From assembly GCA_965112155.1 (NCBI GenBank), contig OZ218112.1: a stretch of DNA of 64,000 bases. The stretch is one strand, 5' to 3'. Under the pieces are notes generated by a model. It searched no databases and was not told the origin of the DNA. It saw only the letters and a list, made by a program, of their open reading frames with translations. Below, piece after piece: positions 1,398 to 39,204 of this stretch. How positions within the stretch are numbered: the first letter of the stretch is position 1; every line of letters begins with the position of its first letter. The position numbers and the translations under genes are program-made. The DNA comes from Podarcis liolepis (Eukaryota).

Positions 1398-2985
1398 ATT
1401 AGCTACAAATATCTTTGTCTTTTTCTCCCCACAACCCTCAATGCTAAAATCAACCTGGTGAAAAGATTATTAATTTCAGTCAGGGAAATGATAGTGCAGA
1501 ATGGGGGGTTCATATCTGACGGTCATAGCCCGGAGATGCAGTTTTTGTCATGCAACCCTTGGTAAGCAAAGAAGAAGACATCAGCAGACCAAATCACAGG
1601 CTTCCCACATCATGTCTGTTGTGGCCTAGGTGGGAGATTATATCTCTGGATGATGCCCTAGTGAACAGCAAAGGGAAAACTTTTTCTCCTCTATGCACCT
1701 GTTTTTGCTTTGTTTCTGCTTTCCATGAGCTTCTATACACGGGAAAGCATTAAAAAAAAAGTACACTATACATCTGAAAGGATGCTGTGGCCTAATTTTG
1801 CCATGAGTGTAGAAGGGGGATGGGGAAGTTATTTGACTCCAGCTCCCATCAGCCTCAGCGTGGCCAGTGGCTATGGATGATGGCAGTTGTAGTCCAGAAA
1901 TACCTGGAGAGACACAAGTTTTCCACCCCTCTTGTATACCAAGTCCCACACACACCAAATGTGACTATTGTTAGCAAATGCACTTGAACAATGCAGATGG
2001 AATCCAGATGGTATAATGTTCTACTGCAGAAACCAAACAAAAACAGTGCATCATCTGAGTTCAGGCCTTGTACAGAGCAGGCAGAGGCAGACTGAAGCAG
2101 CTGCCTTGGGTGGCAGAATCCAGTGGGGTGCTGCCACTGCGGTTGCCCCACTTGCCCCTGCCCCTGCTGCTAGGGTCACACAGTGGAGGTGGCTTTTTCC
2201 AGTGAGATCTCAGGAGAGTTCCATGAGATCTCGCTGGAAGTCACTGCACAACCCCAGTAAGTGAGGCTTCGGCAAAAGGCTGCAGCCACAATGGGGCAAG
2301 GCAGCAACTTTCCATTTTGCCTCATGTAGTGCAATGGGCACTCATGAGAGCGGGAAGTCATTCAACAAAACTAGGCTTGCCATATGTCAGGAAAATTCCT
2401 GATCTGTTCTGTTTTTTTGCTGAAATGGCAAAATATCAGGGAAAACCTGGATGTATGACAACACAATGGAAAAAGCACTGGAAGCAGCTCCAAAAGCTTA
2501 AAATCACTATATTTTGTGGGGAGGCTCAACAACTTGGGGGAGGCTTTTTTGAAATATGGCAACCCTAAACAAAACGTACAGAAGAAAAACTCCCTGAGAA
2601 CTTCACAGCCAATCAGAGCATGTGCTACTTCAGTAAACACCATGTCTGGTGTCTACCTGGTTGCTAAACAACACCTCCACCCACCCCCCACTGGGCTAGT
2701 TGACTTTAACTCCAACAGAACTAACCCTTAAATTGCAAATTGAATGATCCCTACTGTTGCCCTTCCAACAACGGTAAAGCTGTTTCATGACTTCAGGCAG
2801 CATGTGGCAACTCACAAAAACAACACACACACACACACAAAAACAATAAAAATCCATGCACACAGGAGGCTAGCATGCTTTATTCCCAATGTGCCAATAA
2901 TTTAACTTGATTATTTTTGGAAATATTCCGGGGAAGGGAGTTTGATAAATATGCTTGTATGTCTCCCCTTTCGCAAATCCACAAC

Positions 2986-2988
<3 letters not shown>

Positions 2989-3030
<42 letters not shown>
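2989..3030. repeat. (CA)n microsatellite
   Basis: Direct reading. Confidence 0.95.
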
Positions 3031-3032
<2 letters not shown>

Positions 3033-5037
3033 CAATCCAACAGGTTTTCTGATTATTCCCCCCAACTCACATACCGCCAATTACATTTGCCTAAAAATAA
3101 AACCTCCAATCAAAACCCGACCTCTTATGTAATTAGCTAGGCTGCCTGCCTTTCCTCTCCCACAGAATGCCAAATGAAACCAAAGGGTCTGTGATGCTCA
3201 TTTAAAGTGAAAGGAGCAGGCACAAAATCTTTTTTGGCCCTGAGTGTGCTCAGCTACTCCATGTTTGCAGCCCGGTTGAGCCTCAAAACTAGTCATAGCT
3301 CAAGGAAAGGAAATGACCTCTCCTGGCATCTGTTAGGGAAGGATCTTAGCTCAGTGATAGAAGGTCCTTGGTTCATTCCCCAGCATTTCCAGGTAGGGAT
3401 GAAAGGGATTCCAGTATGAATAATACTAATACTAATACTAAAAAATACCCTGCCCATCTGGTTGGGTTTTCCTAGCCACTGTGGGCAGCTTCCAGCACAT
3501 AAGGGGAGAAGAGTGGGGGACGATGACATAGTTTTCAGTACACAGCCAAATCACACCTGGCGACCAAAGAGGAAAGGAAGTTAATTTAAATACTGAATTT
3601 TGCGTTAGCAGTTGCACTACTTTAGTACATTGGGCAGCAGACAGACACTGTGTCCTGTGTCTCCGTTTCCCACAGGGAAAACTGTCCCCTCCTTGTCAGT
3701 CAGTGTGGACAATACTGAGTTAGATAGCTGAATGATCTGACTTAGTATAAGGCAGCTTTCATTTTTCCTAATAGTTTTTGCTCCCATTAGATTAAGAAAT
3801 AAAGGAGAAGCTTGAAGATGGGGAGGCTGAAAACACAAAAGCAAGAAAGAGTCTGTTTGACTGCGTGCTGGTCATCAATGGCAGGCAAATTAGACATGGC
3901 TCCACAGAGATGGAAGAAGGGAACATATGACATACCTTTAATGTGCGTCATGCTCCTGATCCCAATATGGCAGCTTTCCACAAATAATAGCCCAGTTTGT
4001 GGGCTGAAGACCTTCCTGTCTAGCCCATGGGACACTCCCCAAGGCTTTTGCTTGATTCAGATGTGTCCTTGGGTGTTTCCAGACCGGGATTCAATCACAT
4101 TCCAGCAAATTCAGGTTCTTCTGGAAAGTGGCAGGAAAATGCACTAGAAAATGTGGGATGACGATTGCTTGATGCAATATTGTCTAACCTGGTTGCAAAC
4201 TTTTGTGCAAACAAATCAGGTTGGTTGGATGCTCAGCAAAAGGACCACCTGGAAGCAACTCTTGACGACCTGGAAGCAAAAGGACCACCTGGAAGCAACT
4301 CCTCTCACTTGCCTGGATGGAGGAGGGAGAGAGGTGTACATGACAGAGGATGAGTGTAGAAACCTCCAACTTCTGTGTTGCAAACTTGAGAGTTGCCTCT
4401 GTTGTTCTAACCACTTTTGCCTCTGCAGCCCCGTCATTGGCAAGTGGCCCCAAGAAAGTCATTTTGAAGAGGGTTCTCTACACCAACAGCAGCTAAAAAT
4501 ACAGGAGAGCTGTTTGTGTCTTTCCAGCTTTCCTGTCCCTATACCTGGAAGGCTTCCTTGCTCCCAGGCTTAATACCATTAATGATTCACCCTCTCTCAA
4601 TGCTGATGTTACCTCAAAACTGTTACTTAGTGGACAGTATCTGTGCCCTCACTGGTGCTGAGCAAGCCATGCACCTTCCCATTCCCTCCAGAGCCACCCC
4701 ATTTTGCAACTCAGAGATCAGGCAGCAGAGAGGGAACTTGCATGCAAAACGGTTTTAGTCCAAAAGAAAAATGTGAGTAGGCTGCCTGTCAGTGTCACAC
4801 ACAGACACACATGCAAACACACTGACACTGCCTTGAGCCTGCACTATAGCTGAAGTCAAAATGACCTGGAACTCCTGCCCATTTTGCCTGCACCAAGGCT
4901 TGTCAGTTTCAGCTCCTATGTAGTCCCCCTTTTTCCGGTTGGCACTTATGTGTACATGCGCCATCCAGACACACTGAATTCAGTATGACCTCTAAAACAC
5001 AACCCAGATTCCTACCTTCCCTTTCTCTTTTAGCTTA

Positions 5038-12458: not shown

Positions 12459-15400
12459 TCTCATGGGATGTCATTGGTAATTTGCACTGCCCTCAGAGCC
12501 ACCATTTGGGTTCTGTTTGTGGACATTGTGCAGACCTAGAGTTGGTGAGGTACATTGGTTAGACTGTTGGACTAGGACTTGGTTCAGAACCACTACTCAG
12601 CCATGAAGCTCCTTGGGTGACCTCGAGGAAATCACTGCCTCTCAGCAGGGAGGATAAAATGGGGTGTGGGGTCACACGTGCTTGAGCTCCTTGGAGGAAA
12701 GGTGAGGTTTAAATGAAAAGACAAATAGAGAAAACAAAATAGATTGCACAAACCTTAATACAGCCCATTCTTCATGTTCCCAAGTGTGCTGCAATGCTCA
12801 CCAGCCCACAACAATTCCTGCTGAAAACTACAGGCTCAGATTTCATTAAAAAAAGAATAATAATGAGAAAAGAGTTGTTCCCTGGAAGTTAAAATCCTTT
12901 GCCCTAAAATGGCAACCTCCCTTTCTTTCTAAGTCTATGTGGTTATGCAGGAGGAAGCACTTTGTGCATGCTCAGAGGCATTGCCACATTTTGCCCACAG
13001 AAACTTGGATCAGACACTCTCAAGAGAGGAGGGTTGCTCCAGAGACTTTTCTGTGTTTTCACTTCTGATAGAAGCAATTGGTGGGGATGTGGGATGATGA
13101 ATCACGACTGCATTCTGTTGAGGACTGGACTGGTTTTGACAGGCAGGCACTGATGTGTTTTGCAGACTGTATCTGATGCTAATGCTCGGCCACAAGGAGC
13201 AACCCACTACACTGCCGTTCCGGTGTCTGAGCACAATCCCTTTTCAACACGAGACCTGCTCTAATCCACCCTGGGATTTGGCTGTGTCTCTAAGCAACAG
13301 CAAAAATGGATTTGCCTATGTTTTGTATCCATAGGCTTGTATCCCCACACCTCAATGGTACAGTAGCCTCAGACGCCACTGTTATGCTCTCTGCCTTAAT
13401 CAGAAGTGTGGAAGATCAGAATCTTTCCCCTCATTCTTTTGTTAACCTCTAGGTAATCCTCCCCAACATTATGACTGCTGAAGAGAAGGAGAGAGGCCAT
13501 GCAAAAATAAAACAAAACATAGTTTTCTCTTGCAATTTGAGCATGCAGTTTTAACATGTATAATGGACTGGATTTAAATTCTACTCAGAGTAGACCCATT
13601 GAAAGTTAATCATGCCCATCATGGAAGGGTGAGAGGGGTATGTGTTATCAGTTTGCTTTTTCTTGTTTTTCTTATGAGTTTTGTGTTCTCATTTTTATGT
13701 TGTGAACTGCTCTGTAATCTTCGGATGAAGTGCAGTATACAAATGTAATAGATACTCCTGCTACTACTAATAATCTCAATGAGTCTGCTCTGAGTAGGAC
13801 TAACCATAGGTATTACCCAGTGGTTCTAAGATTGCCTATTTTATTTATATTTATATCTTGTTTTTCACAGTTGTGCTAATTGGTATTTTAAAATGAGTAT
13901 CTTGAGTGATCCTTTGTAAACCACTTAGAGGTTTTGGTGATCAAGTAAGCAGTATGCAAATGTTGTTCAATAAAACAAAGCAAAACAAAATACCCCAAAG
14001 TAAGCAGGCAGGCAGTGTGTCTTCCTTCCAAGGATGTCACTATATTCAACCTGTGTGTTCTTCCATGCAGTGACATGGATGGTGGTGACCTCCAAGCACT
14101 CTGAATATGCTCAGAGGCAACTGGAAGAGAGTTCTGAGGGCATATGTGGTACAGAAATGGAGGAAATTATTAGTCTTAAACCGTATTGAATTGCTGCATC
14201 GACGCAGTGTGGCCAAACCCTGTAAGATGTGCACTGTTTAGCACCATCTTTGGAGATGAGCCCTTTAGCCTGTTTGTGTCCTGACTGGAAGCTTCAGGTC
14301 AGATTCAGGCCATGGAAAGCCATGTTCTACCTCTACTGTTGGAGGCAGTATGATTGAATACCAGGTGCGGATAACGCTGTTGCACCCAAGACCTGCTTAT
14401 GGACTTCCCATGATATTGGCCACTGTGGGAACAGGATGGTGGTTTAGATGAGCCATTGGTCTGCTGCAGCAGGCTTCTCATTGGCTTGTATGTCCTTCAT
14501 GCCTAGATGCCATTAATGTGAACTACCCCTTAAGAGCATAGGCACCAGCTTTACACCAGGTGTGACTACCTATTTAGCTCCGATCTAGCAGCAGCTGCCC
14601 AGAGCATCAGAGAAATGTATTTCCCATCACTGCCAATGAGAGCTGAGCCATTCCTACCATGAGGCAGAAAGATGGAGCAGATGCTGAAAATTGGCATCAA
14701 AATGTTGGACCACAGGGCTGTGCCTGCCACGGGGCTGTGCCTGCCACACTTTCTCTTGGTCTCTTATTTCCCCCTTTTCGGTTCTTCACACTTCCATAAC
14801 ACTATGTGTTGGTCTGTTTTTAAAATCCTCATGAAAGCCATTACCCCTTATATAAACACATTTTTGTATGCAGTTTCGAAACAAAATGCACTTTTTCTTT
14901 TGCAAGCATTTCTCCTAATAGGCAGTATTTTTGTATGTCAACTTTCACCATAATATATGCATTTTTCTTGCACACATTGTTTGGTTGAAGAACCACAATA
15001 CAAAGTGCAGAGAACTGTGGGTTTTGAAGGAGAGCTGTGTTTTGGTTTGTACCTTGCCTTGAAAAGCGTGAATCAGGTAGTTTCTCATTAGAATGCAAAG
15101 AAAACAGAATGCATCTCCTACATTCTCTGACCTCTGCTGTCTTGAGCAGGCCTGTTTTGAAGGGCTGTAACTCAGTGGTCGAGAGTGGTTGCTCACCCTT
15201 CTCAGGGAGGCGACAGCTGCGGACCTTCACCCCATCAGCCATCCCAGCAGCAGCAGCCCAAGTGCTGCCCAATAGTTAAGGGAATTCCCCAGCCAGCAGG
15301 ATTTCCCTCCGGAAAGTCAATATAAAATGGGCCAGAGGCCCCGCTGCAAGGTTCAATGCCTAACAGTAGTTCCAGATAGGGCTAGGGGGCTGCTGCCATT

Positions 15401-17089
15401 CAGTGAGTAGACCATACTGAACTAAATGGATTATCAGTGTGACTCAGTATAAGGCAGCTTCCTATGTTCCTTCAGGTGCAGTGGTGGATGTGACCCTGTC
15501 GCCAGCATTGAAGCAAGACTCAGCTGCCATTCCATTCAGGTTCTAAACATGGGATAGTGGAGTGACATTGTGTCCTTTGTCAGGGCAAAACATTCTGATC
15601 TGGTCCTTCTTTCTCCAGATGTGCTCTATCCTTAAGCCGTGTGTTCCCATCAAACAAAAACTGCATACAAATAAGCAGTGGGGGCGGGGAGTGATATAAG
15701 CCTGTTCTGTGCAAACATTGTCAGCATTGCTGCTACATGGATGCCTTATTAGAAACAAAGGAAGCTGCCCCCTTTTTAAACCATGTAAAACCATCGGCCC
15801 ATCTCCAGTTGTCTCTCCCAGCCCCACCAGGGATTGAACCTGGGACCTTGTGTAAGCAAAGCAGGTGCTTTACCACTGAATTATGGTCATTCCCACATCA
15901 TTTAAAATCATGATCACATAACATGAATTAAGACAAGGAGGTATTTCTGGCAGACAGCAAACATCAGAGAAAGAGAGAGAGGGAGGGAGAGAGAGAGGGG
16001 CAGAGAGAGATTTTGTTCACTCCAACATTCAACCAGCTTACAGCCATGTCTTCTACTTTCCAATCATATATATGTTTTTAGAGTCCCATTCTGGAGAAAT
16101 CTCCAGCCACTGAATATCCTAATATTCAGAAACCACCTAGAAAACTAGTCCTGATTTTTTCCTAATGTGGTGGAATCCCATCTGCAAAGATATACATGGA
16201 TGGCCTCACTTTGATGAAAGAAATATAGAGGCTCGGAGATGGTCTGTAATGGTTTTCTGGGTTGTGCTGACAATGAGATATTGATTGGTCTTGAGCAGTG
16301 CAGGAAATTAAAAAAGAAAGAAAAAGGAGGGGTGATTAATCTTTGTCAGCCCCCAAAAATGTGACGCACGACTTCTCTTTCCTACGAGGGACTCTTTGAC
16401 TCACTTAATCAAAGGCTGCATCTCATTTGGAAGCTAAGCTGCTTTTGTGGAATGGGAGCAGGGATCCCATCAGAGAGGGGTGCTTGGGAAAGTGCTGAAT
16501 GATTTCTGTACTCCAAATCTCCTTGTCTCAGCAGTTCCCCACCCTCCGTGGGGCTTTAAATGTAGGGAAATGCTCAGTGAAAATCTTGTGGTGGTCATGG
16601 TGGTGGGGACACAGATTGAGGGACAATTTGGAGTGGGGAAAGGGCTAAGCACCCCTTCCTCTTGCAGTTTCAACTGATCATTCCCACCTGTAGTGTCTGT
16701 TTTTTAATCATTAAAACAGGTCACAAGGCTCCCATGCGGTTTGAGCTTATTGCAGTCCAGACCTAAGCACCCAAAACAGCAGGGACAATGGTCATAGGTG
16801 ATGGAAGATGAAATCCAAAATGCCTGGAGGGCACTAGGTCAGGGAAGACTGCTATGCAGTTCAAAGTGACTTCAGTCCTAGTAAAGAGTGCTGGTCACAC
16901 GTGAGTGGGAATTGGGACCTGAGTTTTAACTCTCTAGGTTTTCTCATTTCACTCACTCCCAATCTGAACAACCTCTGAGGTCTTGCATGCCTCCCATTTC
17001 TCCAGACGAGCCAGTCAAAACGATCCAGTTTTCTGAACAAATCCACAAGCTGTGTTTTTTTTTAGAAAGTACATCTTAATATAAATAAG

Positions 17090-17095
17090 TTTATT
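17090..17095 (-). terminator. Duplicated copy of the putative poly(A) signal
   Basis: Identical context to 23118-23123, offset by 6028 bp, inside the tandem duplication. Confidence 0.45.
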
Positions 17096-18022
17096 CAGTG
17101 CATGGTTGTATACAACAAATAATAAACATCTCCTTGTACAAAGCAGTCTGAAACAGCTCGAACCGATCCATGTCAGCTTTGTACAAATCTGCAACAGATG
17201 CTGACGTTGAGCAATGCACGAAATCGTAACATGTCATGCAACTCTTAAGCCAATATTCCAACTTTCTCCCATGCAACGGATATGAGGAACTAAATGGAAA
17301 CCTAATGAATTCTTTTTAAATATATATAGGTTTTTGCTTTTTTAAAAAAGGGGAAAGGAGGGCACAATCAAAACTCTGCTGCGGGCAGAGATCAGGGGGC
17401 AGATGGGCTCCTTGTAGGAATGCATCAGATCCCTCCCTTCTCCCACCAGGCCATTGTCACACCACTATGACTGCAGTTCATGCAAGGCAAAACCCCTTAA
17501 ATATTATCCAGGAGCTTGCTCCTTTCCATGGCAGGACCACAATACATCTGTCTGATAGCCCCTTGCACTTTAAGCCCCTTCAGGTGTTACAATCAGGTTA
17601 ATGTGAGCACACGGTAGGAGCAGCAGGAACAGGTGTGTCAGCCCTACCCCACGACCCCATTATTTATATTATCACACTCCAACTCAAAGAAGGTAAACTT
17701 CTGCAACAGGGTGCCATTTGAATTCAGGGCCTGATTAATAATAATAATAATAATAAATTTTATTTATACCCTGCCCTCCCTGGTCAGAGCCGGGCTCAGG
17801 GCGGCTAACACCAGTAAAATTACAGTAAAAACATAATAGGAAAAAACCACAATTTAAAATACAGGTTAAAATCAATTTAAAATGCAGACCTTTAGAGACC
17901 CTAAGCACTTAAAAGATTTTGGTGCCCCCATATATTCCTAATTCAAAATATAAACAACTATAAACCCTAAAATAAAATTGTATGTTACGGAAAGAAACCA
18001 AAACCTACATGCTTCATTTTTG

Positions 18023-18083
<61 letters not shown>

Positions 18084-18209
18084 GGGGGTCTACTTTTTCT
18101 AGTTGCAACGTCTTTGATCAGACCCTCAGAACTAATCTTACACAATGTGTTTGCTTCTACACTTAGTAGAGATAAGGCATCCAGCCTGCCTCATTGTATA
18201 GTTGTTCTG

Positions 18210-18350
18210 GGACATGGGTGGTGCTGTGCTTTAAACCACTGAGCCTCTTGGGCTTGCCGATCGGAAGTTCGGCGGTTCGAATCCCCGCGACAGGGTGAGC
18301 GCCCATTGCTCTGTCCCAGCTCCTGCCAACCTAGCAATTTGAAAGCAGTT
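18210..18350 (+). mobile_element. Sauria SINE 5' part (duplication copy 1)
   Basis: gggacatgggtggtgctgtgctttaaaccactgagcctcttgggcttgccgatcggaagttcggcggttcgaatccccg; B-box GTTCGAATC. Confidence 0.85.
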
Positions 18351-21300
18351 CAAACTGTTGGGATTTTTTAATATACTTCATCTGAGAAAATGAATTCTCA
18401 GCTGAGTAATTTGTGACCATGAATGTTAAAAATCAGGCAACGGAAAACTTTTGTGGTGCCTCCCTCTTCCCTTGATGCCCGAAGCACGTGCTTAATTTCC
18501 TTCATGGTTAATCCAGCCCTGTTTGGAGTCATGGATGCTCCAGATGCATTTCAGAACCATGGCTTTGCAGGCTTCCAAAAATGCATGTGGAGCCTCCAAA
18601 GATAGAATGGGGTCCTTGTTGCAGAAGTTTGTGTTCCATGAGTTGGGAGGAGTTAAGAATGATAGCATGGGAAAGCAATGGGGACAGTGTGCTTGTCCCT
18701 GCCACCCCACACATGATTATATCAGCCTAAAGGTAGCACCTGAAGCTGGCTTCATTCTTTGTGGGCAGAAGACACTGGGCAATGTTCTCCTTCCCAACAG
18801 CATGTAGATATGCTTTAGGGGTTGTTTGTCGTGATGCTTCTCTTCTACCCTAATTTCATGTAAGTGAAAGAAAGAATTTTAATTTTTTTTTACAAACAAT
18901 ATTGATTTTCCTTATAAAAATTAAGTCACCTCAATTCCACAGTTTCTGTCTTTAGAAAAAAGAAGCCACGACAACAGTTTGTTTTTTTTAAAATATGTTA
19001 CATAAAATGTAATTAAGAGAAAGCAGAGGGAAAGGAGGGGGAGAAAAAGAAACTCTACATATTGGGGATATTTTCATCCCCTCTATTTTTATTTTTTATT
19101 TTTTAGAAAAACAACAACCCAAAAACATTATCTTCCACTGACTGGGGGTTAACGTTAACACTTTGGTTCCTACAGACTAGGGTCAGCACAAGGACTTTAA
19201 ACAGAATACTACAAATCTATTAAAAAATGTATATCTCTCAGTGTAGTTTTTTTTTTTTATCGCAAGAACACTTCTCTGGAGACTGAGACACTGACACTCA
19301 GCTCCAAACCTGATTTTTTTTTTAATTTTTATATTATACTACTATTAGCATTATGTTGCTTGAAAAGACACAGCGCTGAAGAAGACCCATTGGAGTTAAG
19401 GAATCAGAAAGTTGCACTATCCCAAATTAAAAGAATACATTGGGTTTGTTATCAATATCAAGCCTTAAGAGATATAAAATGGTAAGCTGAGAAAAAAAAC
19501 CACAGAGTTCACATATCCTGTTTGTTTACCCTCTAATGCTATAGATATAGTTTTCTCTTGCAATTTGAGCATGCAGTTTTAACATGTATAATGGACTGGA
19601 TTTAAATTCTACTCAGAGTAGACCCATTGAAAGTTAATCATGCCCATCATGGAAGGGTGAGAGGGGTATGTGTTATCAGTTTGCTTTTTCTTGTTTTTCT
19701 TATGAGTTTTGTGTTCTCATTTTTATGTTGTGAACTGCTCTGTAATCTTCGGATGAAGTGCAGTATACAAATGTAATAGATACTCCTGCTACTACTAATA
19801 ATCTCAATGAGTCTGCTCTGAGTAGGACTAACCATAGGTATTACCCAGTGGTTCTAAGATTGCCTATTTTATTTATATTTATATCTTGTTTTTCACAGTT
19901 GTGCTAATTGGTATTTTAAAATGAGTATCTTGAGTGATCCTTTGTAAACCACTTAGAGGTTTTGGTGATCAAGTAAGCAGTATGCAAATGTTGTTCAATA
20001 AAACAAAGCAAAACAAAATACCCCAAAGTAAGCAGGCAGGCAGTGTGTCTTCCTTCCAAGGATGTCACTATATTCAACCTGTGTGTTCTTCCATGCAGTG
20101 ACATGGATGGTGGTGACCTCCAAGCACTCTGAATATGCTCAGAGGCAACTGGAAGAGAGTTCTGAGGGCATATGTGGTACAGAAATGGAGGAAATTATTA
20201 GTCTTAAACCGTATTGAATTGCTGCATCGACGCAGTGTGGCCAAACCCTGTAAGATGTGCACTGTTTAGCACCATCTTTGGAGATGAGCCCTTTAGCCTG
20301 TTTGTGTCCTGACTGGAAGCTTCAGGTCAGATTCAGGCCATGGAAAGCCATGTTCTACCTCTACTGTTGGAGGCAGTATGATTGAATACCAGGTGCGGAT
20401 AACGCTGTTGCACCCAAGACCTGCTTATGGACTTCCCATGATATTGGCCACTGTGGGAACAGGATGGTGGTTTAGATGAGCCATTGGTCTGCTGCAGCAG
20501 GCTTCTCATTGGCTTGTATGTCCTTCATGCCTAGATGCCATTAATGTGAACTACCCCTTAAGAGCATAGGCACCAGCTTTACACCAGGTGTGACTACCTA
20601 TTTAGCTCCGATCTAGCAGCAGCTGCCCAGAGCATCAGAGAAATGTATTTCCCATCACTGCCAATGAGAGCTGAGCCATTCCTACCATGAGGCAGAAAGA
20701 TGGAGCAGATGCTGAAAATTGGCATCAAAATGTTGGACCACAGGGCTGTGCCTGCCACGGGGCTGTGCCTGCCACACTTTCTCTTGGTCTCTTATTTCCC
20801 CCTTTTCGGTTCTTCACACTTCCATAACACTATGTGTTGGTCTGTTTTTAAAATCCTCATGAAAGCCATTACCCCTTATATAAACACATTTTTGTATGCA
20901 GTTTCGAAACAAAATGCACTTTTTCTTTTGCAAGCATTTCTCCTAATAGGCAGTATTTTTGTATGTCAACTTTCACCATAATATATGCATTTTTCTTGCA
21001 CACATTGTTTGGTTGAAGAACCACAATACAAAGTGCAGAGAACTGTGGGTTTTGAAGGAGAGCTGTGTTTTGGTTTGTACCTTGCCTTGAAAAGCGTGAA
21101 TCAGGTAGTTTCTCATTAGAATGCAAAGAAAACAGAATGCATCTCCTACATTCTCTGACCTCTGCTGTCTTGAGCAGGCCTGTTTTGAAGGGCTGTAACT
21201 CAGTGGTCGAGAGTGGTTGCTCACCCTTCTCAGGGAGGCGACAGCTGCGGACCTTCACCCCATCAGCCATCCCAGCAGCAGCAGCCCAAGTGCTGCCCAA

Positions 21301-23117
21301 TAGTTAAGGGAATTCCCCAGCCAGCAGGATTTCCCTCCGGAAAGTCAATATAAAATGGGCCAGAGGCCCCGCTGCAAGGTTCAATGCCTAACAGTAGTTC
21401 CAGATAGGGCTAGGGGGCTGCTGCCATTCAGTGAGTAGACCATACTGAACTAAATGGATTATCAGTGTGACTCAGTATAAGGCAGCTTCCTATGTTCCTT
21501 CAGGTGCAGTGGTGGATGTGACCCTGTCGCCAGCATTGAAGCAAGACTCAGCTGCCATTCCATTCAGGTTCTAAACATGGGATAGTGGAGTGACATTGTG
21601 TCCTTTGTCAGGGCAAAACATTCTGATCTGGTCCTTCTTTCTCCAGATGTGCTCTATCCTTAAGCCGTGTGTTCCCATCAAACAAAAACTGCATACAAAT
21701 AAGCAGTGGGGGCGGGGAGTGATATAAGCCTGTTCTGTGCAAACATTGTCAGCATTGCTGCTACATGGATGCCTTATTAGAAACAAAGGAAGCTGCCCCC
21801 TTTTTAAACCATGTAAAACCATCGGCCCATCTCCAGTTGTCTCTCCCAGCCCCACCAGGGATTGAACCTGGGACCTTGTGTAAGCAAAGCAGGTGCTTTA
21901 CCACTGAATTATGGTCATTCCCACATCATTTAAAATCATGATCACATAACATGAATTAAGACAAGGAGGTATTTCTGGCAGACAGCAAACATCAGAGAAA
22001 GAGAGAGAGGGAGGGAGAGAGAGAGGGGCAGAGAGAGATTTTGTTCACTCCAACATTCAACCAGCTTACAGCCATGTCTTCTACTTTCCAATCATATATA
22101 TGTTTTTAGAGTCCCATTCTGGAGAAATCTCCAGCCACTGAATATCCTAATATTCAGAAACCACCTAGAAAACTAGTCCTGATTTTTTCCTAATGTGGTG
22201 GAATCCCATCTGCAAAGATATACATGGATGGCCTCACTTTGATGAAAGAAATATAGAGGCTCGGAGATGGTCTGTAATGGTTTTCTGGGTTGTGCTGACA
22301 ATGAGATATTGATTGGTCTTGAGCAGTGCAGGAAATTAAAAAAGAAAGAAAAAGGAGGGGTGATTAATCTTTGTCAGCCCCCAAAAATGTGACGCACGAC
22401 TTCTCTTTCCTACGAGGGACTCTTTGACTCACTTAATCAAAGGCTGCATCTCATTTGGAAGCTAAGCTGCTTTTGTGGAATGGGAGCAGGGATCCCATCA
22501 GAGAGGGGTGCTTGGGAAAGTGCTGAATGATTTCTGTACTCCAAATCTCCTTGTCTCAGCAGTTCCCCACCCTCCGTGGGGCTTTAAATGTAGGGAAATG
22601 CTCAGTGAAAATCTTGTGGTGGTCATGGTGGTGGGGACACAGATTGAGGGACAATTTGGAGTGGGGAAAGGGCTAAGCACCCCTTCCTCTTGCAGTTTCA
22701 ACTGATCATTCCCACCTGTAGTGTCTGTTTTTTAATCATTAAAACAGGTCACAAGGCTCCCATGCGGTTTGAGCTTATTGCAGTCCAGACCTAAGCACCC
22801 AAAACAGCAGGGACAATGGTCATAGGTGATGGAAGATGAAATCCAAAATGCCTGGAGGGCACTAGGTCAGGGAAGACTGCTATGCAGTTCAAAGTGACTT
22901 CAGTCCTAGTAAAGAGTGCTGGTCACACGTGAGTGGGAATTGGGACCTGAGTTTTAACTCTCTAGGTTTTCTCATTTCACTCACTCCCAATCTGAACAAC
23001 CTCTGAGGTCTTGCATGCCTCCCATTTCTCCAGACGAGCCAGTCAAAACGATCCAGTTTTCTGAACAAATCCACAAGCTGTGTTTTTTTTTAGAAAGTAC
23101 ATCTTAATATAAATAAG

Positions 23118-23123
23118 TTTATT
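23118..23123 (-). terminator. Putative FGF13 polyadenylation signal AATAAA
   Basis: Minus strand ...gcactgAATAAActtatttatattaagatg, with upstream TGTA motifs and downstream ttgtggatttgtt. Confidence 0.55.
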
Positions 23124-24050
23124 CAGTGCATGGTTGTATACAACAAATAATAAACATCTCCTTGTACAAAGCAGTCTGAAACAGCTCGAACCGATCCATG
23201 TCAGCTTTGTACAAATCTGCAACAGATGCTGACGTTGAGCAATGCACGAAATCGTAACATGTCATGCAACTCTTAAGCCAATATTCCAACTTTCTCCCAT
23301 GCAACGGATATGAGGAACTAAATGGAAACCTAATGAATTCTTTTTAAATATATATAGGTTTTTGCTTTTTTAAAAAAGGGGAAAGGAGGGCACAATCAAA
23401 ACTCTGCTGCGGGCAGAGATCAGGGGGCAGATGGGCTCCTTGTAGGAATGCATCAGATCCCTCCCTTCTCCCACCAGGCCATTGTCACACCACTATGACT
23501 GCAGTTCATGCAAGGCAAAACCCCTTAAATATTATCCAGGAGCTTGCTCCTTTCCATGGCAGGACCACAATACATCTGTCTGATAGCCCCTTGCACTTTA
23601 AGCCCCTTCAGGTGTTACAATCAGGTTAATGTGAGCACACGGTAGGAGCAGCAGGAACAGGTGTGTCAGCCCTACCCCACGACCCCATTATTTATATTAT
23701 CACACTCCAACTCAAAGAAGGTAAACTTCTGCAACAGGGTGCCATTTGAATTCAGGGCCTGATTAATAATAATAATAATAATAAATTTTATTTATACCCT
23801 GCCCTCCCTGGTCAGAGCCGGGCTCAGGGCGGCTAACACCAGTAAAATTACAGTAAAAACATAATAGGAAAAAACCACAATTTAAAATACAGGTTAAAAT
23901 CAATTTAAAATGCAGACCTTTAGAGACCCTAAGCACTTAAAAGATTTTGGTGCCCCCATATATTCCTAATTCAAAATATAAACAACTATAAACCCTAAAA
24001 TAAAATTGTATGTTACGGAAAGAAACCAAAACCTACATGCTTCATTTTTG

Positions 24051-24105
<55 letters not shown>

Positions 24106-24231
24106 GGGGGTCTACTTTTTCTAGTTGCAACGTCTTTGATCAGACCCTCAGAACTAATCTTACACAATGTGTTTGCTTCTACACTTAGTAGAGATAAGGC
24201 ATCCAGCCTGCCTCATTGTATAGTTGTTCTG

Positions 24232-24372
24232 GGACATGGGTGGTGCTGTGCTTTAAACCACTGAGCCTCTTGGGCTTGCCGATCGGAAGTTCGGCGGTTC
24301 GAATCCCCGCGACAGGGTGAGCGCCCATTGCTCTGTCCCAGCTCCTGCCAACCTAGCAATTTGAAAGCAGTT
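24232..24372 (+). mobile_element. Sauria SINE 5' part, antisense within the predicted FGF13 3'UTR
   Basis: Identical to 18210-18350. Confidence 0.85.
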
Positions 24373-26052
24373 CAAACTGTTGGGATTTTTTAATATACTT
24401 CATCTGAGAAAATGAATTCTCAGCTGAGTAATTTGTGACCATGAATGTTAAAAATCAGGCAACGGAAAACTTTTGTGGTGCCTCCCTCTTCCCTTGATGC
24501 CCGAAGCACGTGCTTAATTTCCTTCATGGTTAATCCAGCCCTGTTTGGAGTCATGGATGCTCCAGATGCATTTCAGAACCATGGCTTTGCAGGCTTCCAA
24601 AAATGCATGTGGAGCCTCCAAAGATAGAATGGGGTCCTTGTTGCAGAAGTTTGTGTTCCATGAGTTGGGAGGAGTTAAGAATGATAGCATGGGAAAGCAA
24701 TGGGGACAGTGTGCTTGTCCCTGCCACCCCACACATGATTATATCAGCCTAAAGGTAGCACCTGAAGCTGGCTTCATTCTTTGTGGGCAGAAGACACTGG
24801 GCAATGTTCTCCTTCCCAACAGCATGTAGATATGCTTTAGGGGTTGTTTGTCGTGATGCTTCTCTTCTACCCTAATTTCATGTAAGTGAAAGAAAGAATT
24901 TTAATTTTTTTTTACAAACAATATTGATTTTCCTTATAAAAATTAAGTCACCTCAATTCCACAGTTTCTGTCTTTAGAAAAAAGAAGCCACGACAACAGT
25001 TTGTTTTTTTTAAAATATGTTACATAAAATGTAATTAAGAGAAAGCAGAGGGAAAGGAGGGGGAGAAAAAGAAACTCTACATATTGGGGATATTTTCATC
25101 CCCTCTATTTTTATTTTTTATTTTTTAGAAAAACAACAACCCAAAAACATTATCTTCCACTGACTGGGGGTTAACGTTAACACTTTGGTTCCTACAGACT
25201 AGGGTCAGCACAAGGACTTTAAACAGAATACTACAAATCTATTAAAAAATGTATATCTCTCAGTGTAGTTTTTTTTTTTTATCGCAAGAACACTTCTCTG
25301 GAGACTGAGACACTGACACTCAGCTCCAAACCTGATTTTTTTTTTAATTTTTATATTATACTACTATTAGCATTATGTTGCTTGAAAAGACACAGCGCTG
25401 AAGAAGACCCATTGGAGTTAAGGAATCAGAAAGTTGCACTATCCCAAATTAAAAGAATACATTGGGTTTGTTATCAATATCAAGCCTTAAGAGATATAAA
25501 ATGGTAAGCTGAGAAAAAAAACCACAGAGTTCACATATCCTGTTTGTTTACCCTCTAATGCTATAGATATATATATGTATAAAACATTAAGCATTAGAAT
25601 TTCCCTCGAAGAGCAAAAAAGTGGTCTTTGATTGGACTTCTCTCTTGGCTGGACAGCAAATTCAAATCAGCAGTTAAGTGCTGCAAAAAAATGTTTTCCT
25701 GCTACTTAATTCTGCCCCCCCCCCCCAGCACAGGTGAGATTAAAGAGAGAGTGAGCAAGAGGGACATTTCCTCTCTGTGGTTTTATGCCGCAAGTTATGT
25801 TTTGTCTGGCTATCCTTGTGTGATTGCACAAGCACATTCTATGTTACTGGGCTCTCTCTTTTTTACTATTATCATTTGTTTAGAATTATTTTAGAACAAC
25901 CAGAAGGTCTAAATGGCTGATAAGACAATGTGACCTATGCCAGTTTGTTGGCTTGCCTCGCTGGATGATAGGCAGCTAAGAAAGTGCTTATATCTATGAT
26001 TCCAGAGGTAAGATTCCATTTACGCGTCTCTCCAGTTGCTCCCTAAACCTGG

Positions 26053-36252: not shown

Positions 36253-36307
<55 letters not shown>
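36253..36307. repeat. (TA)n microsatellite, left flank of the PLE
   Basis: Pure TA run abutting the element. Confidence 0.95.
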
Positions 36308-36310
<3 letters not shown>

Positions 36311-36385
36311 TTCGTAGATTTTCACGGGTACAGGAATGCAGGTTTTGGTGTCCTCGGGTGTCTTCCCGTGTAAAAGTTGGGGTGT

Positions 36386-36430
36386 CTAGGCGACGTTTCG
36401 ACGAGGTCTCACTCGTCATCTTCAGGCTGG
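36386..36430 (-). ncRNA. Minimal hammerhead ribozyme motif, inverted-arm copy (sense to FGF13 pre-mRNA)
   Basis: Exact reverse complement of 39086-39130. Confidence 0.7.
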
Positions 36431-36660
36431 TGCTTTCGGCTTCTTGTTACTGGAACAGAGCGGGATCTCAGTGTTTGAGTTCCTATAAATACTGTAGAGG
36501 GGTGTGGTGTATTGCCTCAAAAGTTCTGGGCAGAGGGGAAGTTCCCAGGCTAGTGTTCTTTTCTTCTTTTGTTCCTTAATTACTTGAGGGATATCTTGAG
36601 TGATTTCTTGAGTGATATTCTGAGTACCACTTAGGTGGGTCATTAGGTGTGGATTAGTTG

Positions 36661-37296
36661 CTAAAGCCTTCGTGTCTTGACCTCTTGAATTTGTGAAGAG
36701 TTTTTCTGGGAAGATGGCTGTACTGCACTTAGTTGTGCTTTGGCTTGGCTTCGTGTATAGGGGCGAGCTGTGGTTTTGTGCCCTGTGCCAGCCAGATCTG
36801 TGTAGGGATTGCAGGGGGGTGCAGCATCCGGAGTTGCCACCATGGTTTGGTTACTGGATGGTGTCTGTAATTTATCTGTGGAGAGGGTCTGGGTTTGGGT
36901 CTGGTGTGGTTGATTGGTGGTGGCGTTCTGTGTGCCTCTGGATCTGGTGTCGGTTTTTGTGGGGAGGGCTAATTTCCAGATGTCTGGCAGGCGGGACGTG
37001 TCGTCACGCTTGTTCATGTTGTGAGGGTGTTTCTCTATCTCGATGGCTTCCATGATTATTCTCTTGTGGTGATGTTCCATGTTAAAGAGCAATTTGGAAT
37101 CTGCAAAATTAATTTCGTGTCCTGTTTCTTTCATGTGTTGGAAAAGAGAGGAAGATTTTTCTTCTTTTTTGACGGCATTCTTGTGTTCTGCGATACGTGC
37201 ATTTATTCGTCTGTTTGTTTGTCCAATGTACGTGGCTGGGCAGACTTTGCAGGGTATTTCATAGACCCCTTGGTTTTCCAACTGGATTTTATCTTT
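36661..37296 (-). pseudogene. Inverted duplicate of the PLE GIY-YIG endonuclease region
   Basis: ORF 36661..37281(-) matches the C-terminal part of ORF 37692..38855 residue for residue from ENQGVY onward. Confidence 0.92.
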
Positions 37297-38855
37297 CAGC
37301 CCTATGCAGAATCCATCTCTTCACACGTTACAAACTCCTTCCAGTTCATAGAAACAATAAAGAAGCAAAACCTACATCCCGATGACCTACTTGTGAGCTT
37401 CGATGTTGTATCTCTCTTCACACAAGTGCCCATTAATGAAGCCTTGACAGCCATTCAAAACAAATACAATCCCCCCGAATACATCCTGGACCTGACCAAC
37501 CACTGCCTAACCAACACGTACTTCATCCACAATGGACAAAGATACAAACAGATAGAAGGAGCACCTATGGGATCACCCCTCTCACCGGTCATCGCAAATC
37601 TGTACATGGAACACTTTGAAACCAATGCTTTAGACAAGTCAGAACACAAACCCAAACTTTGGCTCAGATATGTTGACGACACCTTTGTAATTTGGCCGCA
37701 CGGGAAAGAAAAACTGATAGCTTCCTCACACATCTCAACAGCCTACACCCCAAAATACAATTCACTATGGAAATAGAAGCCAACAACCAGCTTCCCTTCC
37801 TTGACGTCCTAATCTACAAAAAACCTGATGGCTCCCTAGGACACACTATCTACCGGAAAAAAACACACACCAACCGCTACTTACATGCTCAATCACACCA
37901 CCACCCTGCACAAATAAACTCCGTAGCCAAGACCCTCATCTCCAGAACCAAACGCCTGGCTGACAAAGACCACTTGACAACTGAGTTACAGAATCTCTCA
38001 AATGTGTTAATCGCCAATGGATACCAGCAAAACAGGGTTAAGAAGCTAATCCAAAAAGAAACACCCCCCAAAAACCAAGACACGGAAGAAAACAATGGCA
38101 TGGCCCTCCTTCCTTATATCAAGGGCACTACAGATAAAATTAGCAAAATCCTCCATAAACACAATATCAAAACAGCCTTTTGCACCAACCAAAAAATAGC
38201 CAATATCCTCAGAAACCCCAAAGATAAAATCCAGTTGGAAAACCAAGGGGTCTATGAAATACCCTGCAAAGTCTGCCCAGCCACGTACATTGGACAAACA
38301 AACAGACGAATAAATGCACGTATCGCAGAACACAAGAATGCCGTCAAAAAAGAAGAAAAATCTTCCTCTCTTTTCCAACACATGAAAGAAACAGGACACG
38401 AAATTAATTTTGCAGATTCCAAATTGCTCTTTAACATGGAACATCACCACAAGAGAATAATCATGGAAGCCATCGAGATAGAGAAACACCCTCACAACAT
38501 GAACAAGCGTGACGACACGTCCCGCCTGCCAGACATCTGGAAATTAGCCCTCCCCACAAAAACCGACACCAGATCCAGAGGCACACAGAACGCCACCACC
38601 AATCAACCACACCAGACCCAAACCCAGACCCTCTCCACAGATAAATTACAGACACCATCCAGTAACCAAACCATGGTGGCAACTCCGGATGCTGCACCCC
38701 CCTGCAATCCCTACACAGATCTGGCTGGCACAGGGCACAAAACCACAGCTCGCCCCTATACACGAAGCCAAGCCAAAGCACAACTAAGTGCAGTACAGCC
38801 ATCTTCCCAGAAAAACTCTTCACAAATTCAAGAGGTCAAGACACGAAGGCTTTAG
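37297..38855 (+). pseudogene. PLE RT-GIY-YIG polyprotein, 5'-truncated, one frameshift near 37716
   Basis: ORF 37021..37776 (RT, genuine only from ~37297) joins ORF 37692..38855 (thumb + endonuclease) if one base is restored at AAA CTG [G]AT AGC (HGKEKL-DSFLTHLN). There is no extra Cys finger between RT and EN, which argues against the Neptune clade. Confidence 0.9.
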
Positions 38856-39085
38856 CAACTAATCCACACCTAATGACCCACCTAAGTGGTACTCAGAATA
38901 TCACTCAAGAAATCACTCAAGATATCCCTCAAGTAATTAAGGAACAAAAGAAGAAAAGAACACTAGCCTGGGAACTTCCCCTCTGCCCAGAACTTTTGAG
39001 GCAATACACCACACCCCTCTACAGTATTTATAGGAACTCAAACACTGAGATCCCGCTCTGTTCCAGTAACAAGAAGCCGAAAGCA

Positions 39086-39130
39086 CCAGCCTGAAGATGA
39101 CGAGTGAGACCTCGTCGAAACGTCGCCTAG
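39086..39130 (+). ncRNA. Minimal type I hammerhead ribozyme motif in the PLE 3' repeat
   Basis: ccagc CTGAAGA t GACGAG tgagac CTCGTC GAAA CGTC gcctag: CUGANGA core, perfect 6-bp helix II, GAAA, palindromic ACGU in place of helix III, GUC cleavage triplet. Helix I is weak. Confidence 0.7.
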
Positions 39131-39178
39131 ACACCCCAACTTTTACACGGGAAGACACCCGAGGACACCAAAACCTGC

Positions 39179-39204
<26 letters not shown>
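39179..39204. repeat. (TA)n microsatellite, right flank of the PLE
   Basis: Pure AT run abutting the element. Confidence 0.95.

Follow-up and report, generated by a model that had tools for sequence, protein, structure and literature searches.

A Penelope/Poseidon-type retroelement with an inverted partial copy, and a tail on the shorter arm, between TA microsatellites in Podarcis liolepis

The window analysed here, a stretch of 64,000 nucleotides of Podarcis liolepis DNA, carries a Penelope element that lies between two TA microsatellites and has a 3' end at both outer edges. No further copy of this element was detected within the 64-kb window. The parts of the locus are as follows.

36253..36307, no strand: left microsatellite, (TA)27.5, at least the last two bases of which are equally assignable to the element end
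36308..36335, minus strand: 28-nt 'tail', present in the left arm only; equals +85 to +112 of the next ORF and codes part of the conserved N-terminal RE-L-x-x-H motif
36336..37296, minus strand: inverted, 5'-truncated copy with the C-terminal part of the endonuclease, the 3' region and the pseudo-LTR; 961 nt, 100% complementary to 38220-39180
36393..36425, minus strand: minimal hammerhead-like core of the left arm, found by pattern match; ATG at 36419
37295..37296, no strand: head-to-head junction; two T are assignable to either side, i.e. 2-nt microhomology
37297..38219, plus strand: spacer, made up of the RT core and thumb from the 5'-truncated direct copy, with the frameshift at ~37715
38220..39180, plus strand: direct arm with the GIY-YIG endonuclease (ORF stop at 38855), the 3' region and the pseudo-LTR; stops at the short end, which is +84 of the next ORF
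39091..39124, plus strand: minimal hammerhead-like motif of the direct arm; CUGAAGA at 39091-39097, 6-bp stem II at 39099-39104/39111-39116, GAAAC, and GUC at 39122-39124
39179..39204, no strand: right microsatellite, (AT)13, the first AT of which is equally assignable to the element end

Read along the top strand, the locus consists of TA, 989 nt of antisense element, 1,884 nt of sense element and TA. The two arms (961 nt each, 0 mismatches) are separated by 923 nt, and the left arm is longer by 28 nt at its outer end. In element sense, both outer ends read ...CAT and run into the TA repeat. A preliminary description of this DNA had reported the same arrangement of arms, spacer and (TA)n, the identical 961-bp arms, the left extension and the two ...cAT ends, and we recovered all of these at the same coordinates. 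The host flanks outside the TA runs are unrelated (28.5% identity, ungapped, over 200 nt), and the inversion is therefore confined to the element and excludes host DNA. A near-repeat outside the TA runs (TGCATAAC/TGCACAAC) was rejected as a target-site duplication because it is wrongly placed for one. Neither a TA run nor a palindrome is present at the junction. Elsewhere in the window, three element-free TA runs of at least five units occur, which cover 0.18% of its length.

Apart from one frameshift, the element contains a single ORF that codes an RT followed by a C-terminal GIY-YIG endonuclease. The Pfam domain RVT_1 was found at 37294-37737 (E 3.1e-13) and GIY-YIG at 37677-38852 (E 5.5e-4, under the curated cut-off). 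The best protein match was a Podarcis muralis gene model with 96% identity over 95% of the query. Residues 181-691 of Podarcis muralis LOC144326219 (P0001) are collinear with the window except for the frameshift near 37715 and are 96-98% identical; the frame of P0001 departs from that of the window at 38825-38828, downstream of the endonuclease. The Vipera latastei protein M6D78_018813 (P0037) is 79% identical to the window copy, and these three sequences form one starred clade in our tree. The Anolis Poseidon protein (P0073; 47% identity over 409 residues) sits on a separate branch. We take it to be the Anolis element of PMC11167929, since by eye its N-terminus appears to fit the translated RNA printed there with one residue different. 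The window copy groups with this protein in a starred clade of 33 of the 38 rows, in a tree that includes no named Neptune or Nematis row.

The endonuclease carries a CxxC inside its core and downstream histidines, which by eye align with the Anolis protein. The 45 residues upstream of GIY-YIG contain one cysteine only and thus no extra CX2-5CxxC finger, which the sections of PMC8557442 on classification give as a trait of Neptune, Nematis and Naiad. The C-terminal endonuclease, its CxxC and histidines and the lack of an upstream zinc finger therefore fit the Penelope/Poseidon clade as outlined in those sections. The DKG motif was lost from this copy through 5' truncation and is present in P0001. 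We conclude that the locus almost certainly holds an endonuclease-bearing Penelope/Poseidon-type retroelement, as initially proposed. A DNA transposon with terminal inverted repeats (foldback or MITE) was discarded because the arms code an endonuclease and the spacer an RT. A LINE-1-type twin-priming inversion was likewise discarded, because the inverted arm is a duplicate of the 3' end; this difference had been pointed out in the preliminary description. The tail pattern had 0 matches in metagenome contigs, and a metagenome protein scan yielded four loci with 33-40% identity, to which we gave no weight.

P0001 is a mis-annotated element. Its first 37 residues are identical to the antisense RT frame, and an inverted copy would therefore lie upstream there too. 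A protein of Diabrotica shows 65% identity over 184 residues, and the lacertid and viper proteins nest among unnamed sequences, away from the Anolis element. The lacertid/viper branch could be of separate, perhaps horizontal, origin.

Two features of the arms were overlooked in the preliminary description: a hammerhead-like motif, and the identity of the tail as the start of the next ORF. Both arms terminate with the motif (CUGAAGA, a 6-bp stem II, GAAAC and GUC). The pattern was matched twice in the window, versus 0.01 matches expected by chance, and both matches are one duplicated sequence. Helix I of the motif is 2 bp long and the palindromic ACGU is present; for the minimal hammerhead of Penelope-like elements, a helix I of 4-5 bp is given in the relevant part of PMC4209133. 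An Rfam scan returned no hammerhead match, its four weak hits being TA runs matched to miRNA models. In comparison with shuffled sequences, the hammerhead and the 3' stem did not fold better (z −0.51, −0.92 and −1.22); the last value belongs to the stem between the two 3' ends, for which 23 of 200 shuffles were equally good. The motif is hammerhead-like by its sequence boxes, and self-cleavage is putative.

The ATG of the next ORF (39097) lies within the hammerhead core, as does its equivalent in the left arm. This agrees with the pseudo-LTR of the class, which the structural descriptions in PMC4209133 and PMC11167929 present as a minimal hammerhead motif plus ORF start. The right arm ends at +84 of the next ORF and the left arm at +112, or at +114 with the AT that it has in common with the repeat, so that the tail measures 28 nt, or 30 nt if this AT is counted. 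The last seven codons encode RENLRKH, which was the top-scoring 7-mer of the N-terminal peptide under a profile built from 23 relatives picked out of 139 proteins. This score was equalled or exceeded by 9 of 92,468 six-frame 7-mers of the window; a 13-residue version of the profile was weaker (77 of 70,423), the 7-residue version being the clearer one. BLASTP of the 38-residue N-terminal peptide against the Anolis protein gave E 0.52, and the multiple alignment misplaced the peptide. Since both ends fall within the beginning of the next ORF, the 28 nt are genuine element sequence, and the template was apparently a read-through RNA of tandem copies.

Some variation among relatives touches the same region. 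With an extra base at the equivalent of 36689, the ORF (38666-39094) would shift to a frame with a stop at 39092-39094, inside the hammerhead core, and this stop precedes the next ATG by two bases (39092-39099). Other indels, at 36498-36557, vary among copies, so that full read-through to this stop is putative.

We aligned four sequencing runs to 36284-38230: the raw reads of two related organisms (~1.9 billion letters each) and two runs of contigs, X15 and X2. Positions 36284-36317 were skipped as a repeat, and the long end was thus left out of the family scoring. The raw-read depth was 2,581 and 4,346 near the 3' end and dropped to 724 and 637 where the spacer begins. If the genome is taken to measure 1.4-1.5 Gb, these depths correspond to ~1,900-3,400 3' ends per genome. 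X15 contains most of the sequence words of the window and could be its source; more than half of the aligned X15 contigs (4,596 of 8,593) were at least 99% alike. Loose ends exactly at the short end (36336) occurred in at least 440 of 22,903 and at least 1,015 of 28,627 raw reads and were followed by sequence with (AT)n as consensus, at an agreement of 0.82 and 0.84; these counts are lower bounds, drawn from the 24 of 590 loose-end rows listed and after reads resembling human DNA had been dropped. The same passage from 36336 into (AT)n was seen in at least 21 X15 contigs. The agreement values imply that about three quarters of the letters past the short end are TA, compared with the 0.18% of the window covered by element-free TA runs, and in two X2 contigs a 5'-truncated end adjoins a TA run. 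The share of copies that bear the tail is ~0.4-0.7 at most, a rough bound from bin depth to which we gave no weight. Our findings indicate a young, high-copy and apparently undescribed family of lacertid elements that strongly favours (TA)n at its short end. As far as this end is concerned, they bear out the suggestion that TA flanks are a habit of the family.

In 510 and 272 raw reads, loose ends before 37295 led into the upstream sequence of the family. The junction of this locus itself (37296|37297) was bridged by none of the 16 pieces listed among 9,425. Opposite-strand joints at 37285/38230 and 37293/38222 in the raw reads were dismissed, as they merely reflect the normal passage from spacer to arm on the reference. 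For X15, the listing covered 15 of 128 rows in one table and 12 of 94 in another and contained 22 distinct joints; 15 led from an antisense arm into a sense spacer and the other seven lay within one arm or spacer. The X15 library was probably made by proximity ligation, and joints on restriction sites mimic rearrangements. We therefore discarded four of the 15 arm-to-spacer joints that had this look, being at most 2 nt from GATC, GANTC, CTNAG or TTAA. The remaining 11 had depths of 52-161 and scattered breakpoints, with extra letters in eight and microhomology of 2-4 nt in two, and their two sides differed by hundreds of bases. By these sequence traits they look like end-joining products of independently truncated cDNAs. 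Head-to-head joints thus recur in this family, which agrees with the remark in the preliminary description that such elements often show inverted partial duplications.

The single frameshift noted earlier is a one-base gap at ~37715. Among the raw reads, 692+11 of 832 and 625+15 of 740 have a base there, as do contigs from X15 and X2; because most family reads are without it, the gap is either confined to this copy or a mistake of the assembly. The variant at position 37698 is likewise private to this copy. An extra base at 36689 was present in 1,707 of 2,055 and 3,034 of 3,484 raw reads of the relatives and absent from X15 and X2; it lies past the endonuclease and corresponds to the frame change of P0001 at 38825-38828. 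The absence of differences between the arms bounds the age of the insertion at ~0.5-1.6 million years, at an assumed (3 to 1)×10−9 per site per year and unless conversion or polishing homogenised the arms. The youth claimed in the preliminary description is supported. The same description had called the family possibly active. Activity can be attributed to the family only: the present copy is dead, because its ORF begins inside the RT and carries a frameshift.

How did the two 3' ends come to face outwards? The shorter arm has 28 nt with no counterpart in the longer arm, which in turn has 923 nt missing from the shorter one, so that neither, as they stand, is a copy of the other. Because the tail on the shorter arm cannot derive from the longer arm, two RNA-templated cDNAs are the likeliest source. 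We consider the best explanation to be two such cDNAs that were primed on opposite (TA)n strands, truncated and joined head to head (probability roughly 0.65), and the preliminary description had arrived at the same route of two separately primed cDNAs. The 11 other joints, together with the absence of a palindrome or short loop at the junction, back the end-joining reading for this locus.

In this mechanism, a single insertion event would begin when the RT-endonuclease protein, probably as a dimer, nicked a (TA)n run on its two strands. The 3'-OH groups thus exposed would serve as primers for reverse transcription of the read-through RNA of tandem copies, within the beginning of the next ORF. 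Priming would take place at +84 from the bottom strand and at +112-114 from the top strand, positions that flank the 3' strand of a small stem. The cDNAs would halt after ~1,884 and 989 nt, and their truncated ends may have been united via the 2-nt microhomology, followed by fill-in. Either one or two RNA molecules could have served as template, and the order of steps given here is conjectural, being drawn from one locus. The long end (+112-114) falls at the main initiation zone of the Anolis element (+111-118 in the portion of PMC11167929 that reports the in vitro data), and the short end (+84) would, from a tail length of 30-40 nt, match the second Anolis start site. Counting against the two-cDNA route are the insignificance of the stem between the ends by folding and the preference for other routes in the passages of PMC8557442 and PMC3846280 on this structure.

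The preliminary description further supposed that AU microhomology positions the priming. Two nucleotides at the short end can indeed pair with the target, but initiation is homology-free according to the experimental part of PMC11167929, a result that speaks against this half of the proposal. At the long end, 15 of 23 relatives continue with Ile, and such a residue here would lengthen the pairing to 4 nt. An extended version, in which the family primes both nicked (TA)n strands through AU pairing at two fixed RNA sites, one per protein subunit, and lengthens the TA by reiterative telomerase-like copying, seems to us quite doubtful. If it were true, the family would at once exploit and create TA microsatellites, and this at thousands of lacertid loci.

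One alternative starts from a single cDNA. After priming at the long end, it would fold back at the 2-nt microhomology and copy its own 3' portion together with the tail, which the endonuclease would then cut off one end in the course of integration. This would directly account for the 100% identity of the arms; moreover, PMC8557442 holds the tail to come most likely from endonuclease-mediated resolution of an intermediate, and self-priming has been inferred from palindromic junctions (in PMC3846280). However, it requires a 923-nt loop shut by 2 nt and an additional, precise cut at +84. The junction here has no palindrome, the sides of the 11 other joints are also unequal by hundreds of bases, and both sites correspond to in vitro reverse-transcription starts reported for the Anolis element (the part of PMC11167929 cited above). 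We therefore regard fold-back as unlikely, albeit a serious competitor. An assembly or read artefact of the fold-back kind, which would also yield arms that are 100% identical, is extremely improbable. No listed contig crosses the junction and the same window has a 6.03-kb tandem duplication without substitutions, but a fold-back artefact would copy the flank too and could not give one arm 28 extra nucleotides of the element in the correct frame. In addition, 11 other such joints are present in short-read contigs and the antisense start of P0001 implies an inverted copy.

The TA runs themselves might be partly or wholly made by the element at an AT-rich nick, through reiterative telomerase-like copying of AU or slippage during priming, and not be a pre-existing microsatellite. 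Both ends close in AT, the RNA reads AU at the short end and the flanking runs are unequal (27.5 versus 13 units), all of which would suit such synthesis. The two X2 contigs with a 5'-truncated end on a TA run are impossible by 3' slippage, though, and element-free TA runs of at least five units do exist in the window. Simple AT-rich targets are on record for Penelope and (TA)n for Naiads (the target-site passages of PMC3846280 and PMC8557442, respectively), and we judge element-made TA runs decidedly improbable. Two independent insertions into one TA run, later homogenised or derived from the same master copy, would be conceivable because revisits are likely in an abundant, TA-biased family. 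Yet the 5' ends meet with 2-nt microhomology and without an intervening TA run, and the arms agree at all nine listed positions at which 42-65% of the X15 contig depth differs, which makes this origin very improbable. We thus retain the joining of two separately primed cDNAs as the preferred reading.

The nearest system is Poseidon of Anolis carolinensis (PAc; Frangieh et al. 2024, PMC11167929). In the experiments described there, both target strands were cut and extended in vitro, and two initiation sites bounded a tail, with the main site measured at the zone given above; the protein is predicted to be a dimer, the targets are AT-rich and initiation occurred without homology to the target. 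The main text of PMC11167929 draws no link to inversions and leaves the later integration steps unvalidated. Compared with PAc as presented in that text, the lacertid element has the same order of RT and C-terminal GIY-YIG, an ORF start in the hammerhead core, a tail between two 3' ends and AT-rich targets. By eye, a stem also lies at the matching place (CAUGGCC/GGCCAUG in PAc, CACGGG/CCCGUG here). The elements differ, as far as that text goes, in their flanks, which are pure (TA)n here and generally AT-rich in PAc, and in that each end here could pair with the target over 2 nt or more, whereas PAc initiates free of homology; helix I is only 2 bp here.

In LINE-1 twin priming, the piece that is inverted comes from the interior of the RNA and does not overlap the other piece. 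The lacertid locus resembles it in that two primers on opposite target strands would be used and the inversion is joined by microhomology. It differs in that the inverted piece duplicates the 3' end and both cDNAs would begin at internal points close to one site.

An inverted truncated copy with a one-sided tail is the typical Penelope structure according to the structural account in PMC3846280 and is drawn in Fig. 2 of Craig et al. 2021 (PMC8557442). The layout also appears in the element descriptions of a curation guide (PMC8969392) and of the D. virilis Penelope form C (PMC2377424), and in this class the tail measures 30-40 nt at one end. Pen2a_Av of Adineta vaga, as depicted in PMC3846280, likewise has an inverted, 5'-truncated copy at its 5' side, a tail of ~30 nt at one end and a pseudo-LTR with the first ORF codons. 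Set against that depiction, the direct copy here is itself truncated in the RT and there is no upstream direct pseudo-LTR; the junction is without a palindrome, and a target-site duplication is unreadable inside (TA)n. P0001 and P0037, for their part, are gene models and not curated elements. The accessible part of a preprint (bioRxiv 10.64898/2026.07.22.740005) contains nothing on the inverted layout beyond these other sources.

The preliminary description therefore overstated the novelty of the locus: the layout has been published as typical, and the two sites, both-strand extension, a predicted dimer and AT-rich targets are known for the Anolis element from the pertinent part of PMC11167929. 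The layout is an ordinary product of an abundant family and is no surprise to a specialist. What remains is an abundant family of lacertid elements, seemingly not yet described, that strongly favours (TA)n, along with a clear case of the tail sitting on the shorter arm. We found no published account of the lacertid family or of Penelope twin priming in a search of openly available papers, which is weak evidence of novelty. The origin of the inverted repeats and one-sided tail of Penelope-like elements is named as an open question in PMC8557442. The present locus is informative through its asymmetry, with the tail on the shorter arm, yet it does not settle this question. With thousands of young copies, a fixed short end and (TA)n flanks, the family offers material for weighing twin priming against fold-back.

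The remainder of the window yielded some minor observations. Five further long open frames lacked any Pfam hit. The segments 13519-19549 and 19547-25571 form the 6.03-kb tandem duplication mentioned above; its copies differ by 6 nt in an (AT)n run, and it is either very recent or a false assembly duplication. Older dispersed repeats with 70-88% identity were found at 33952-34400/42770-43209, 47965-48181/63701-63917 and 26901-27146/41377-41623, among others.
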